DNA of 64,000 nt from Cyanobacteriota bacterium (GCA_046342315.1 JBKDPV010000025.1:1227-65226), one strand, 5' to 3'. Positions 30,350 through 35,354 are shown, numbered from the stretch's first letter. The notes: generated from the sequence alone by a model not told the origin. Translations and numbers: made by a program.

Positions 30350-31249
30350 ATGATTAACCTGGAAAAGTATTCGCTATCCAGCGAGGATCTTGCCACAATC
30401 GAGGAGCTCCTCGCTAAGACGGGCCGAAACGTAAGCTTGCAAGACCTCTATCAACTGATGGATGAGGTCTGGTACGACTTTGGCTGCGACCCAAATCATT
30501 ACGATGAGGAGAAGTATAATGCTTTCTATCGTCATCCCGTCTGGCTTCTCAATGGTATCTTTATTGAGCAGCACGAAGAATCATTGAGCCACCGCTTGGT
30601 CATTGCAGGCACAATTGGAGAGAGGAAGTCCGCCAAGGTGCTTGATTTTGGCGGTGGATTCGGCACCTTGGCCAGGATGATTGCCACGGCGAATCCTGAT
30701 TGTTCGGTGGATATCTGGGACCCATTCCCTCCTCAGCACGGCATCGAAGCGTGTGCTGCCTATGCTTCGATCCGCTTTGTTTCGTCCCCGCTGGATGATT
30801 CTTATGATGCACTTGTGTGTACGGATGTGTTAGAGCATGTGCACGATCCTCTGGCTCTGCTCGCCACCATGGTGCAGAAGGTGAGGGTTGGAGGTGTATT
30901 GATCATCTATAACTGTTTCTACAGAGTGATCCAATGTCATCTTCCATCCACTTTTCACCTCATTCATACCTTCGATGAATTTTGCCAGCTGCTTGGCTTG
31001 AGGGTTGAGGGCAAGACAAAGGACGACCACGCCACGATCTACGTCAAGGAAGCTGATGTGGTCCCCGATTGGAAGCTGATCCGTCGTCGTGAGAAGGCTT
31101 CCATCCTCTCGCACCGCATCAATCTATGGCAAAAAGATCATCCTGAGTCGGGTCCTCTCCGGCATAAGCTTGCTGTTATTCAGGCAGATCCTCTCTACTA
31201 TCCTGACAAGATTCTGCGGCGATTGATTCAGGTGTTTACCGGGCCTTGA
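30350..31249 (+). CDS. Class I SAM-dependent methyltransferase (low GC)
   Basis: VLDFGGGFG motif I and DALVCTDVLEHVHDP; 28/60 G+C at 30541-30600. Confidence 0.8.
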   Translation: MINLEKYSLSSEDLATIEELLAKTGRNVSLQDLYQLMDEVWYDFGCDPNHYDEEKYNAFYRHPVWLLNGIFIEQHEESLSHRLVIAGTIGERKSAKVLDFGGGFGTLARMIATANPDCSVDIWDPFPPQHGIEACAAYASIRFVSSPLDDSYDALVCTDVLEHVHDPLALLATMVQKVRVGGVLIIYNCFYRVIQCHLPSTFHLIHTFDEFCQLLGLRVEGKTKDDHATIYVKEADVVPDWKLIRRREKASILSHRINLWQKDHPESGPLRHKLAVIQADPLYYPDKILRRLIQVFTGP

Positions 31250-31306: not shown

Positions 31307-32002
31307 TCATCCAGCTGTCACCGTCATCGCCTCCAGCCCGTGCAGGCCCTCATAGAGGAGCCAGACGGCGAACACCAGAGCGAGCACGCCCACCAGCCAT
31401 TCAGCCTTGTGCTGGAGCCATTCCTCCAGGCGGGCGATCGGTTCGCGGATCGAACCGGAACTGGCGATCCAGGCCAGAGGTGGCAACAGCAGCAGCGAGC
31501 TGGCCATCAGGGCGAACAGGCCGCTCACCTCAAGATCGGCGGGGATGCCGGGATGGTTGATCAGCAGCAGCCCCGCTTCCTTGAGATAGAAAACCAGGTT
31601 CTCCGGCGTCAGCAGCGCGCCGGCGGCCCCGATCGGCACCAGCAGCCACGTGTCGAGCCCGGGTAGCCGGTTCATCAGCCGCAGCGCCATGCCCTCCTCC
31701 CCGATCAGGGCCTGGGGGGTGAGCTGATACAGGCCCAGGGCCAGCAGGCCCCCCGCTCCCAGCAGGTCGATCAGCACCTGTTCCCGCTCTCCGTGGCTGA
31801 GGCTCAGGGAGAAGTGCTGCCCCAGCAGCATCAGCACCGCCACCGCGAGCAGGTTGGCCAGGGTCCACCCCAGCACGTAGGCGAAGGAGCGGAGCAGTGG
31901 CGCCCGGCCCAGCAGCAGCAGGGTCACCACCCCGATGTGCAGCGGCGAGAAGGCGATGCCCATCCCGAACAGCGACGACTGGGTGACGAGGGAGGCGTCC
32001 AT
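31307..32002 (-). CDS. GAP/Sap-family membrane protein
   Basis: GIAFSPLHIGVVTLLLL N-terminus, about 6 TM helices, clear paralogy to 52117-52797; ATG at 32002. Confidence 0.65.
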   Translation of the reverse strand: MDASLVTQSSLFGMGIAFSPLHIGVVTLLLLGRAPLLRSFAYVLGWTLANLLAVAVLMLLGQHFSLSLSHGEREQVLIDLLGAGGLLALGLYQLTPQALIGEEGMALRLMNRLPGLDTWLLVPIGAAGALLTPENLVFYLKEAGLLLINHPGIPADLEVSGLFALMASSLLLLPPLAWIASSGSIREPIARLEEWLQHKAEWLVGVLALVFAVWLLYEGLHGLEAMTVTAG

Positions 32003-32089
32003 CGGCGCGGGCGGAAGATCACGCAACCTAACGGCCGTGATTGCCCGGGCGTCTGCTGCCACCCTGGAGAGCGTGGGCACGCCGGCGCC

Positions 32090-33232
32090 ATGTCCGTTTC
32101 GCTGCAGATCGCCAACACGGTCACCGATCTGATCCAGGGCGACGTGCGCGAGCATCTGCCGCTCGAGCGGATCCCGCTGCGGGGCGACGTGCTCGGCCTG
32201 GGCACCACCAGCGGCTGGGACAACGGTGAACTCACCTTCCTCCAGGAGGGCGATGCGGGCGACACACGCATCTGGAAGAGCCAGCCGGCCGATGGCCGCG
32301 TGGTGGCGCTCGAGCCCGGCAGCGGCCTCCAGCACTTTCCCTATGTCTGCTTCAGCGGCGATGCCACGGCCCTGCGGCGTCCGGCGCCGCCCGCCTGCCT
32401 CGGACCCCGGCCAGGGGTACCCCTGCAGGAGCGGATCGCCGAAGCCATGGCCTTCCTCCAGGCGGAGGGCGTGCTGGAGGCGGCGCCGATCTATGGCATG
32501 CGGCTGCGGGCCCGCTGGCAGTCGTTGGTGATCACCGTGGCCTCCAAGCTCTGCCTTGGCGAACTGCGCCGCAATGAGGGTGTGGCCCGGCTCCTGCCGG
32601 GTGGCGCCGCTGCCCGGGCGGTGGGGGCTTCGATCTACGAGCGGCTGCCCCATTTCCGCCTGTCCGCCCAGGATCCCGCTGATCCGGCCGATCCTGTGCG
32701 CTGGCTCGGCGCCAGCCTCCACTGGGAGGGCTGCGGCTTCTGGGACACCCGTCCCGAGAGCGGCCGGGTGACCGTGCCGGTGGCCGGCGCCCACCTCCAT
32801 CTGCATGGCTGCAGCACCGATCTGCGCCACGGCGGCCATCTACACCACGAGCACCCCGACAGCGTGCTCGCGGATCTGGAGCATCTGGTGCTCTACCCCC
32901 TGCAGCACCTGCAGCATCTCGCCAGCGATCTGGCGGTGAGCGAGGCCCACTGGCACGCCGGCGAGCTCCGCTTCACGGTGATCAACCACGGCAGCCTCGA
33001 TGCCAGCGACGTGGACGTGGTGGTGGTGATCGACGATCGATTCAGCGATCACCGCCATCTCTGCCTGCCCTGGCTGGAGGCCGGCGGACGCGAACGGTTC
33101 GCCATGCCCCTGCCACTGCCGGCGGGGTGCCATGAGCTGGAGGTGGTGGTGGATCCGGAGCGCCGCATCCTCGAGCCCGGTGACCTTCGGGACGACAACC
33201 GGGCGCGGTGGGTGGTGCACGGCGATGATTGA
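32090..33232 (+). CDS. Alpha-acetolactate-decarboxylase-like domain fused to a C-terminal CARDB-like domain
   Basis: GLGTTSGWDNGEL and HLHGCSTDLRHGGH (ALDC Zn motif H-x-H-x10-H, 32798-32839); C-terminal SDLAV...VINHG...LEAG...GCHELEVVVDPERRILE resembles CARDB. Confidence 0.65.
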   Translation: MSVSLQIANTVTDLIQGDVREHLPLERIPLRGDVLGLGTTSGWDNGELTFLQEGDAGDTRIWKSQPADGRVVALEPGSGLQHFPYVCFSGDATALRRPAPPACLGPRPGVPLQERIAEAMAFLQAEGVLEAAPIYGMRLRARWQSLVITVASKLCLGELRRNEGVARLLPGGAAARAVGASIYERLPHFRLSAQDPADPADPVRWLGASLHWEGCGFWDTRPESGRVTVPVAGAHLHLHGCSTDLRHGGHLHHEHPDSVLADLEHLVLYPLQHLQHLASDLAVSEAHWHAGELRFTVINHGSLDASDVDVVVVIDDRFSDHRHLCLPWLEAGGRERFAMPLPLPAGCHELEVVVDPERRILEPGDLRDDNRARWVVHGDD

Positions 33233-35354
33233 GGGCCGGCGCATCCCCGGCTGGCTGCGTTTCGATGCCCTGCCGATCGGCAATCAGTGCCTGCTGATGC
33301 TGGCGGCCGGCGCGGTGCTGGGGCTCACGCTGCCAGGGGCGGCGGCGCTGCTGCAACCGCTGGGACTGGCCTTTCTGCAGGCCTCCCAGGTGGTGGTGAT
33401 GCCCTTCCTGATCTGTGAGCTGATCGCCGGCTTCGGGGGGCTGAGTGCCGAGGCCCGCCGCGCTCTGTTGCGGGGCGGTGTCCTGGTGCTGCTGGCGCTC
33501 TGGCTGGTGGCGGCCCTGGTGGTGATCGTGCTGCCTTCGTTCCTGCCGTCGTTGGTGTATTCGGGCTTCTTCCGCTCCGACATCTTCCTGGAGCCCGAGA
33601 CCCCGGATCTGCTCCGCACCTATCTGCCGGACAACATCTTTGCCGCCCTGGCGGCCGACAACTTCCCGGCCGTGGTGCTGTTCAGCTCGGTGCTGGGGAT
33701 CCTGCTGCAGGGGATGGGTGAGCGCCGCGACCTGCTGCCGGTGCTGGAGGCGATGCGCCTGTTGTTCGCCCGGCTGAATCGGCTGGTGACCCACATCATT
33801 CCCTACGGCATCCTCGCCCTCAGCACGATCACCTTCTCCCGCCTGGATCTGGCCCAGCTCGTGCGGATCCAGGCTCTGTTCCAGCTCGGCCTGATCGCTC
33901 TGCTGGCGCTCACCGTGCTCTTCAGCGGCATCGTGCTGGCCTTCACGCCGCTGGGCGCGGGCTCCCTCTGGCGGATCGTGCGGGGGCCCCTGGCGCTCAC
34001 CGCCAGCAGCGCCAACCTGCTGATCGCCCTGCCGCTGCTGATCGCGGGCCTGCGCGAGGAGCTGGAGCTGGCGCCGGGGCGTGCCGAGGATCTCTCGCCC
34101 CTGATCTCGCTCGGCTATGCCCTGCCCACCGTGGGACAGGTGGTCTCGCTGCTGTTCATCCCCTTCGCCGCCTGGAGCGTCGACCGGGCGATGACGCCCC
34201 TGGCGATCGCCCGCATGCTCGTCACCGCCGTGCCCGCGTCCGTGGCCGGCATGAAGGCAGTGGTCCGCCAGGAGCTGCTCAGCCAGGGGCTCCCCCTCGA
34301 TCTGCTGCAGCTGGTGTACGTGAGCGGCGAATGGCTCTACCGCCTGGAGAAGGTTCTGGCCCTCGAGGGTCTGGTGGTGCTGGCGCTGCTCGTGCATTTC
34401 GGAGGCACGGCGCGCCGCATCCGCCTGCTGCCCCTGGTGGGTGGGGCCGGCACGGCCGCCGCCCTGGTGCTGGGGCTTGGCAGCGCCAACCGCGCCCTGC
34501 TGGCCCATCTGCTGCGGGATTCCTATCGCAACGACGCCCGCTTGATGGCTCTGCGCCCGGTGGTGCCGTCCCCGGTGCCCGCTCCCCTGCCGGCCCTGCG
34601 TCCCGAGCCGGTGACCCTGCAGGCGATCCTGGCTCGGCGGGTGCTGCGGGTGGGGGTGCGCCGCGACGGGCTGCCCTGGGCCTTCCGCAACCGTCAGGGG
34701 CGGCTGGTGGGCTTCGACATCGATCTGATGGCCTCCCTGGCCCGCGACCTTGAGGTGAGGCTGGAGGTGAGGGAGGGTTCGCTGGCGGAGCTGGAGCGGT
34801 GGCTGCAGCTCCGCACCATCGACCTGGCGGTGGGCGGCATTCAGGCCAGCCCCCAGCGGGCGATCCGCCAGCACCTCAGTCGGGGCTATCAGGCGGTGCA
34901 TCTGGGCCTGGTGGTGCCGGATGACAAGGTGGCACTGGTGCAGAACCTGCCCAAGCAGCCCCTGGGGCGACCGCTGCGGATCGCGGTCGCCGATGCCGAC
35001 AGCACCGGCCCGGAGCTGCGGGATCGCATCGCCCGGGAGCTGGGAGGCAGCGGCACCCGGCCGGTGGTGGAGCTCCTGTCCGTGGAGTCCAAGGATGTGT
35101 TCTTCACTGCCGCCGGTGTGCAGCGCTTCGATGCCCTGCTGACCACCGCTGAGGGGGGATCGGCCTGGGCGGTGCTGCACCCCCGCACCTCCCTTCTGGC
35201 CGTCTTCCGCGATCGTCTGGGCAGTGAGATGGTGGTGGGGGTGGCCGGGGAGGACCACGCGTTGAGCACCTATCTCGACACCTGGCTGGCCCGGGCCCAG
35301 GCCCGCGGACTCACCGAGTCGCTGTTCCGCCGCTGGATCCGGGCGGAATCCTGA
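33225..35354 (+). CDS. Dicarboxylate/amino acid:cation symporter (DAACS/GltP-like) fused to an SBP family 3 domain
   Basis: YLPDNIFAALAADNFPAVVLFS and LTASSANLLIALP TM region; C-terminal LRVGVRRDGLPW...LVGFDIDLMASLARDL binding-protein motif. Confidence 0.78.
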   Translation: MIEGRRIPGWLRFDALPIGNQCLLMLAAGAVLGLTLPGAAALLQPLGLAFLQASQVVVMPFLICELIAGFGGLSAEARRALLRGGVLVLLALWLVAALVVIVLPSFLPSLVYSGFFRSDIFLEPETPDLLRTYLPDNIFAALAADNFPAVVLFSSVLGILLQGMGERRDLLPVLEAMRLLFARLNRLVTHIIPYGILALSTITFSRLDLAQLVRIQALFQLGLIALLALTVLFSGIVLAFTPLGAGSLWRIVRGPLALTASSANLLIALPLLIAGLREELELAPGRAEDLSPLISLGYALPTVGQVVSLLFIPFAAWSVDRAMTPLAIARMLVTAVPASVAGMKAVVRQELLSQGLPLDLLQLVYVSGEWLYRLEKVLALEGLVVLALLVHFGGTARRIRLLPLVGGAGTAAALVLGLGSANRALLAHLLRDSYRNDARLMALRPVVPSPVPAPLPALRPEPVTLQAILARRVLRVGVRRDGLPWAFRNRQGRLVGFDIDLMASLARDLEVRLEVREGSLAELERWLQLRTIDLAVGGIQASPQRAIRQHLSRGYQAVHLGLVVPDDKVALVQNLPKQPLGRPLRIAVADADSTGPELRDRIARELGGSGTRPVVELLSVESKDVFFTAAGVQRFDALLTTAEGGSAWAVLHPRTSLLAVFRDRLGSEMVVGVAGEDHALSTYLDTWLARAQARGLTESLFRRWIRAES

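Follow-up and report, generated by a model that had tools for sequence, protein, structure and literature searches.

What does a cyanobacterial protein do that carries the metal site of an acetolactate decarboxylase (ALDC) and ends in a CARDB domain? This question is raised by a gene of a freshwater Cyanobium, here called X, at positions 32,090 to 33,232 (plus strand, stop codon included) of a 64,000-nucleotide stretch of DNA from a Cyanobacteriota bacterium (GCA_046342315.1, JBKDPV010000025.1:1227-65226), which at its full length we refer to as the window. The open reading frame translates into a protein of 380 residues, P0001, composed of an ALDC-like domain (residues 1 to 272, 32,090 to 32,905; supported by Foldseek, VIA and hhalign) and a CARDB domain (residues 273 to 380, 32,906 to 33,229; supported by Pfam PF07705, VIA and conservation). 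The predicted structure indicates that X is an ALDC-fold, Zn-site-type protein fused to a CARDB domain. Comparison of its residues with those of the known enzymes sets it apart from an ordinary ALDC: Thr149 takes the place of the catalytic Arg145, no tail bearing Glu253 can be aligned, and scores lie under the family cutoffs.

The structure of P0001 was modeled with AlphaFold2 (predicted local distance difference test score of 89.2, predicted template modeling score of 0.86), and loop 170 to 178 alone scored below 50 in the former measure. A Foldseek search with this model returned ALDCs as all of its top matches, with a probability of 1.0 and target-normalized template modeling scores of 0.63 to 0.71, and CARDB domains came next. 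In VIA alignments the model superimposes on solved ALDCs over 212 to 222 residues, with Z values of 19 to 21 and a root mean square deviation (rmsd) of 3.2 Å; the Z values held both in a second look and in a wide search independent of Foldseek. The sole other protein to match the N-terminal domain was the Zn-binding PTD012, with a VIA Z of 14. Fold prediction, the check proposed in an earlier annotation of the window (hereafter the sequence-only reading), thus points to ALDC in both Foldseek and VIA.

Profile comparisons also connect X with ALDC. X has 446 homologs at E ≤ 0.001, the closest with 96 to 99% identity, and the profile of this family matches the B. brevis ALDC (4bt2) with an E value of 5e-6. 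Aligned by hhalign to five canonical cyanobacterial ALDCs, the family gave a probability of 96.7% and an E value of 4e-10 over 214 columns. The single P0001 sequence had no match among the PDB sequences, and models of the ALDC family scored it low: PF03306 (AAL_decarboxy) reached 17.3 bits against a cutoff of 25, over residues 9 to 52 only, and the NCBIfam ALDC equivalog TIGR01252 reached 11.9 bits against a cutoff of 180.65. PF03306 was sub-threshold or borderline in 15 of 17 members of the X family (best score, 25.2 bits), and a search of the window's own genome with this model found nothing at E ≤ 0.001. In the ESM Atlas, residues 1 to 275 lie nearest to clusters named "acetolactate decarboxylase family" (score of 0.88), which we use as a lead only. 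An exhaustive phmmer search linked P0001 over residues 210 to 365 with proteins of similar length (P0174, P0182, P0195 and others), and E values for P0174, P0181, P0184 and P0195 ranged from 8.6e-10 to 8e-5. Since these linking two-domain proteins carry full-length PF03306 matches (31 to 53 bits) as well as CARDB (PF07705), the ALDC–CARDB architecture recurs and forms a bridge to ALDC. P0001 aligns jointly over its full length with other such proteins, which places it in this ALDC–CARDB two-domain subfamily.

The solved ALDCs define what an active site of this fold contains. Their Zn ligands are His194, His196 and His207 plus Glu253, which belongs to the C-terminal tail; the conserved Thr58, Glu65 and Arg145 lie near the metal and contact transition-state analogs (PMC9090609). 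In P0001, all the motifs listed in the sequence-only reading were recovered. GLGT at residues 36 to 39 with G46-E47 (32,195 to 32,230, plus strand, as are all coordinates within X) supplies T39 and E47, the equivalents of Thr58 and Glu65 in a hidden Markov model alignment to 4bt2. The putative Zn triad H237-x-H239-x10-H250 (32,798 to 32,839) corresponds to His194/196/207. Taken alone, the bare H-x-H-x10-H pattern would be weak evidence: P0001 contains 22 His residues (the family median is 4.2% His), the pattern arises in 6% of shuffles of this His-rich sequence, and a second copy at residues 287 to 300 is not conserved. H237, H239 and H250 are placed on the ALDC triad because the profile match to 4bt2, the profile–profile match and the fold match coincide. 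Among 125 relatives of P0001 in which residue conservation was counted, H237, H239 and H250 are kept in 125, 124 and 125, respectively, and T39 and E47 are invariant.

Two further elements of the ALDC site lack a counterpart in the alignments. In the hhalign register, the invariant Arg163 of the cyanobacterial ALDCs pairs with T149 of X (32,534 to 32,536; codon ACC, checked), so that the Arg145 position holds Thr in 123 of the 125 relatives and Ser in the other 2; in the non-cyanobacterial ALDC–CARDB relatives this column contains F, T, S or H. Nothing in X can be aligned with the Glu253 tail, as the last strand shared with ALDC is followed immediately by CARDB, from D280-L281 onward; E285 and E292, the columns that might have held a counterpart, vary among relatives. 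Other residues are particular to the subfamily or to parts of it. N9, D18 and W212 are new invariant residues across the whole ALDC–CARDB subfamily, whereas K153 is conserved within the cyanobacterial clade only. The inserted segment pointed out in the sequence-only reading was borne out by the hhalign gap: the connection formed by residues 153 to 211 (32,546 to 32,722) is ∼25 residues longer than in canonical ALDC. It contains a helix (156 to 168), the disordered loop 170 to 178 and the conserved K153, C155, R161 and R204, of which K153, R161 and R204 are additions of the picocyanobacterial clade; KLCLGELRRN occupies residues 153 to 162, and WEGCGFWD residues 212 to 219. Specific to the same clade is HLHHEH at residues 250 to 255 (H250, H252, H253, E254 and H255; 32,837 to 32,854), whose residues are kept in 117 to 124 of the 125 relatives. 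C87, C155, C215, C241, H252, H253 and H255 are conserved in 118 to 125 of them. The HHEH cluster is absent from P0127, P0128 and the non-cyanobacterial relatives.

The C-terminal Ig-like CARDB module proposed in the sequence-only reading passes the Pfam cutoff and matches solved CARDB folds. PF07705 scored 24.6 bits (cutoff, 22.7) over residues 292 to 362 of P0001, and CARDB was found in 17 of 17 aligned relatives, with a best E value of 2.8e-10. By VIA, the domain aligns with 3idu at a Z of 14.3 (rmsd of 2.0 Å over 101 residues), with 2kl6 at 13.6 and with 2l0d at 12.6, and the family profile matches 2l0d with an E value of 5.8e-6. N299, G301, D355, P356 and E362 are invariant in the 125 relatives, and N370 is nearly so. 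By prediction, it is held rigidly against the catalytic domain. The ALDC chains align structurally up to residues 360 to 365 of the model, which would place part of CARDB at the site of the ALDC C-terminal segment, and an acidic residue of this part, the invariant D355 or E362, could stand in spatially for Glu253. Pairwise ratios of nonsynonymous to synonymous substitution between X and three close relatives were 0.14 to 0.23 overall and 0.09 to 0.27 per domain; both domains of the family are under purifying selection.

The sequence-only reading had also reported that P0001 lacks a signal peptide, and its ALDC domain indeed starts at residue 4. In relatives, gyrA ends 1 to 48 nt upstream of the start codon of X; together these two observations leave no room for a signal peptide, and the cyanobacterial protein is, by all such indications from sequence, cytoplasmic. 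Of 11 non-cyanobacterial relatives inspected, 9, all bacterial, have basic-hydrophobic, signal-like N-termini, and the two archaeal ones do not. The signal-bearing bacterial ALDC–CARDB proteins are probably exported, and the cyanobacterial clade seems to have branched off, as a cytoplasmic form, from a family whose members are mostly exported. Outside the cyanobacteria such proteins are rare: a query with the archaeal P0182 gave 2 matches and a profile 8.

These observations lead us to a reading to which we assign a probability of about one half: X would be a stand-alone cytoplasmic metal-dependent, most likely Zn2+-dependent, enzyme of the ALDC superfamily, with a remodeled pocket, a substrate other than acetolactate and a CARDB domain that completes or caps the site. 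The suggestion in the sequence-only reading of a repurposed metal-dependent enzyme or metal-binding protein is a fair one, given Thr149, the missing Glu253 tail and the sub-cutoff scores. In the proposed mechanism, the metal on the His triad would act as a Lewis acid toward a small metabolite, at its carbonyl or carboxyl group, and E47 would be the general acid/base. X would lack the Arg by which a carboxylate or enediolate like that of acetolactate could be held; instead, N9, D18 and W212, joined in the cyanobacterial clade by K153, would define a pocket for a different substrate. X might decarboxylate a different keto or hydroxy acid or act on it as a lyase, or it might be a hydrolase like PTD012, the related Zn protein. 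The CARDB part at residues ∼346 to 365, with D355 and E362, would replace the ALDC C-terminal segment and close the site. As the product of an accessory gene with no fixed operon partner, the enzyme would act on its own.

To place X in its lineage, we surveyed 151 evenly sampled genomes of the Cyanobiaceae. X is present in 25 of them, in 21 of the 98 high-quality genomes and in 14 of 64 genera. Two genomes (G047 and G090) have it in fragments, and in a third (G143) all that was detected is a short piece of weak similarity (E = 6e-4) interrupted by two stop codons. Among the named holders are Cyanobium, Vulcanococcus and Synechococcus lacustris, as well as three marine strains, WH7803, WH 8017 and MIT S1220. 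Outside this family, ∼372 other cyanobacterial genomes yielded X in 3 cases, one copy having a stop codon, and a homolog in Cyanothece PCC 7425 has ∼40% identity. Searches of phage and plasmid collections gave no matches to X, nor did PADLOC. X is an accessory gene of patchy distribution, well conserved yet dispensable. Canonical ALDC (PF03306) occurs in 32 of the 151 genomes, and a report of it exists for Synechococcus of the Black Sea (PMC6776005), so the view in the sequence-only reading that the ALDC pathway is not typical of picocyanobacteria is right only in part: in this family the enzyme is not rare. Both genes occur in three genomes, two of which (G069 and G139) have intact copies of each, close to the 5.3 expected by chance. 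We therefore rejected the possibility that X took over from canonical ALDC in this lineage; an overlap near chance makes X neither a substitute for ALDC nor a gene tied to it. The canonical ALDCs of picocyanobacteria (L034:1345-2196 and L032:1354-2214) were seen to have an N-terminal extension of ∼45 residues with a near-threshold match to a ribbon-helix-helix (CopG) domain (19.0 versus 20.5 bits), and those of other cyanobacteria (L030 and L031) have a signal-like N-terminus instead. In the literature searched, nothing relevant came up on ALDC combined with CARDB or on CARDB in connection with Synechococcus.

The genomic context of X was compared across 80 named loci. The commonest arrangement, gyrA-X-crtL, occurs in ∼50 of them, and in ∼35 loci the stop codon of X and the start of crtL share 1 or 4 nt. 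gyrA and crtL are also adjacent in four genomes that lack X (G146, G064, G009 and G121), and on another contig of the window's own genome they lie side by side without X between them; the gyrA-crtL pair hence does not depend on X. In the X tree, contexts are clade specific: 50 rows form a clade with gyrA-X-crtL; 10 marine rows form one with purQ-ldcA-X, facing fba genes; another 10 rows have X beside a HemN-like or HDAC-like gene, except that in two species it immediately follows ocp-crtW-frp; and the window's own clade of 8 rows has X head to head with a gene for an SfLAP-family membrane protein. The two species with the ocp-crtW-frp photoprotection cluster are freshwater Synechococcus, in which X lies ∼370 to 400 nt behind the cluster on the same strand (L018:5504-9098 and L020:5415-9104; also L090 and L086). 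Two contexts stand outside the picocyanobacteria. A low-GC cyanobacterial genus (G325; L131:3633-8107 and L132:6986-11554) has X in the order DHA2-type MFS efflux gene, thiamine pyrophosphate (TPP)-dependent 2-oxoacid decarboxylase gene, X; the decarboxylase is nearest to indolepyruvate decarboxylase, under the cutoff, and in a second species of the genus X is decayed, with a TAG stop and its first 45 residues lacking. No such TPP 2-oxoacid decarboxylase was found in the window's genome. In G203, X is followed by a gene for a CopM-family metallochaperone. No partner gene of X is conserved across clades.

That X is distinct from ALDC is supported by the intact copies of both in two genomes and by a TIGR01252 score far from that of an equivalog, and a role in small-molecule metabolism is supported by the MFS–TPP decarboxylase–X cluster of the one non-picocyanobacterial genus. 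The following points weigh against the reading of X as an enzyme with a new substrate. Its contexts are heterogeneous (gyrA/crtL, purQ-ldcA, SfLAP, ocp-crtW-frp, CopM and TPP decarboxylase) and name no consistent pathway; the four conserved Cys residues and the HHEH cluster could point to a role in metal handling; and loss of the Arg does not strictly exclude ALDC activity. The last point bears on whether X could be a true decarboxylase of acetolactate, or of 2-aceto-2-hydroxybutyrate, that makes acetoin in the cytoplasm, with K153, R161, R204 or CARDB compensating for Arg145 and Glu253. TPP-dependent 2-oxoacid decarboxylases are a class known to form acyloins, and the place of X behind one in G325 would suit such an enzyme, as would the ALDC fold with an intact Zn triad and Thr58 and Glu65 equivalents. 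Moreover, the ALDC of E. cloacae works, although slowly, with its conserved Arg facing away from Zn (PMC9090609). We nevertheless consider a true ALDC unlikely, as all 125 relatives have Thr or Ser where ALDC has Arg145, the Glu253 tail is lacking, the score is far under the equivalog cutoff, canonical ALDC is present beside X in G069 and G139, and the pocket has acquired the invariant D18 and W212. Similarly unlikely, in our view, is a metal-binding protein without catalytic activity that would use the ALDC site, together with HHEH and the four Cys, to buffer, store, chaperone or sense Zn, Ni or Cu. The 22 His residues of P0001, the conserved H252, H253, H255, C87, C155, C215 and C241, the CopM-family gene adjoining X in G203 and a faint PpoB2 match of the SfLAP-family neighbor (E = 0.013) all fit this idea, but HHEH and some of the Cys are missing from deeper cyanobacterial members and non-cyanobacterial relatives, while the pocket-type E47, T39, D18 and W212 are invariant across the whole subfamily. 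In addition, no metal-regulator site was found upstream of X, and the metal-related neighbors are single cases.

Two other explanations start from neighboring genes. In the window, X is followed by a gene for a 709-residue protein (33,225 to 35,354, plus strand) that joins an SDF (DAACS) symporter (Pfam SDF, 96 bits) to a C-terminal SBP_bac_3 domain (64.6 bits), an unusual secondary transporter with a tethered binding protein; its ATG at 33,225 overlaps the stop codon of X by 8 nt (ATGATTGA). The sequence-only reading proposed that X acts on the substrate of this coupled transporter, and we judge it very unlikely that X processes a compound imported by this translationally coupled protein. The overlap in the window and in L037 to L039 would favor such a link, as would the fact that 8 of the 11 family genomes with a transporter ortholog also carry X, the two frequently within 10 kb of each other. 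However, direct adjacency with the 8-nt overlap is confined to a terminal clade of these four rows (≥91% identity), set against the gyrA-X-crtL arrangement of the majority of loci; elsewhere the transporter lies behind crtL, usually between crtL and a GH57 gene, several kilobases off, or is absent, and in G093 it is 2.3 Mb from X. No ortholog was found in 17 of the 25 X-bearing genomes searched, and the co-occurrence is confounded by kinship and by the shared variable region between gyrA and GH57-leuA. The link is recent and local, and the transporter is not a conserved partner. The least probable of the explanations considered is a role connected with carotenoids or photoprotection. Two independent contexts speak for it, namely the coupling to crtL in ∼35 loci and the ocp-crtW-frp cluster in two species, but the gyrA-crtL pair without X in five genomes, the window's own included, indicates that crtL can do without X, the common thread was picked out post hoc from eight or more contexts, and we know of no carotenoid enzyme with the ALDC fold. 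Returning to an enzyme with a substrate other than acetolactate, a bolder form of this proposal is possible but doubtful. ALDC–CARDB would be a separate enzyme family with a reaction new for the ALDC fold; CARDB would be a part of the active site that replaces the Glu-bearing tail, rather than an adhesion module; the cyanobacterial branch would have lost the export signal and acquired an additional site for metal binding or redox chemistry (HHEH and four Cys); and X would act on a carbonyl metabolite such as thiamine-dependent 2-oxoacid decarboxylases produce.

The surroundings of X in the window were annotated as well. The divergent neighbor, an SfLAP/GAP-family membrane protein (Pfam PF11139, 93 bits), is encoded at 31,307 to 32,002 on the minus strand; it is this protein whose faint match is to PpoB2, a membrane family labeled "copper chaperone." The 87-nt intergenic region at 32,003 to 32,089, between the two genes, holds the presumed promoter of X, and no sigma-70-like or promoter-like site was found in it. 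An inverted repeat upstream of X, ATCACG-N13-CGTGAT, was considered as an operator and set aside, as it is not kept in L038 and L039 (91 to 94% protein identity). Beyond the SfLAP gene lies a gene for a class I S-adenosylmethionine methyltransferase (30,350 to 31,249, plus strand) with ∼54% GC amid ∼70% GC; it is present in L037 and missing from the otherwise collinear L038 and L039, and is probably a recent insertion. At other loci, the gyrA-crtL-GH57 stretch behaves as a variable spot. A gene of ∼1 kb without a Pfam family, probably on the opposite strand, lies between X and crtL in L097 (8117-9187), L069, L076, L089, L103, L107 and L112, and related copies are found upstream of X in L061 and L081. 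Public records of metagenome-assembled genomes titled Chitinophaga, Bradyrhizobium, Klebsiella or Asaia (L047, L058, L061, L073, L081 and L099) hold a typical cyanobacterial gyrA-X-crtL and are evidently mislabeled bins.

ALDC is treated as a family with a single function. X belongs to a well-populated branch of it, with more than 440 sequence clusters and the model strain Synechococcus WH7803 among its holders, that has kept the metal site while two catalytic elements were lost and an Ig-like domain was added. An automatic label of either "acetolactate decarboxylase" or "CARDB (cell-adhesion) protein" would mislead metabolic reconstructions of picocyanobacteria, one way or the other. X also appears, from its N-terminal sequence, to be a clear case of a cytoplasmic CARDB domain, and if CARDB does complete the active site this would be a new role for the domain. 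The physiological stakes are probably modest, as X is accessory and has no fixed partner.

Comparison with known systems sets out how X resembles and departs from each of them. Relative to ALDC (AlsD/BudA, EC 4.1.1.5; PF03306 and TIGR01252; PDB 4bt2 to 4bt7, 5xne, 6j3d, 5yho, 6inb and 6j92), X has the same fold, the H-x-H-x10-H triad and the GLGT...GE motif with its Thr58 and Glu65 equivalents. It differs in having ∼15 to 18% identity and scores under the family cutoffs, Thr in place of Arg145, a CARDB domain of 108 residues in place of the Glu253 tail, a middle connection lengthened by ∼25 residues and the newly invariant D18 and W212, to which the picocyanobacterial clade adds HHEH and four Cys. 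Closer in architecture are the ALDC–CARDB proteins of uncultured bacteria and archaea (P0174, P0181, P0184, P0195, P0230 and the archaeal P0182, which bears the database name "acetolactate decarboxylase," together with P0198 and P0231 to P0235 of 590 to 600 residues). These align with X from end to end and share its invariant N9, G17, D18, E47, W212, H237 and H239 and the CARDB signature. Unlike X, they reach full-length PF03306 scores of up to 53 bits, have neither the long insert nor HHEH and, in 9 of 11 cases, start with a signal-like N-terminus that the cyanobacterial clade lacks. PTD012/C11orf54 (PDB 1xcr, DUF1907), titled a zinc-containing fold, is the second-best match of the N-terminal domain, with a Z of 14; it is a weaker one than ALDC, with an rmsd of 4.2 to 4.4 Å, 12% identity, no CARDB domain and no relationship detected at the sequence level. 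Finally, the CARDB domains of Pyrococcus PF1109 (3idu/2kl6) and Methanosarcina MA_4588 (2l0d) have the Ig-like fold of the C-terminal domain of X (Z of 12.6 to 14.3, rmsd of 1.7 to 2.2 Å) and the same N-x-G and D-P...E...N signature. Those solved domains are modules of cell-surface proteins, whereas the CARDB domain of X is fused to an enzyme-like domain, and the whole protein carries no export signal.

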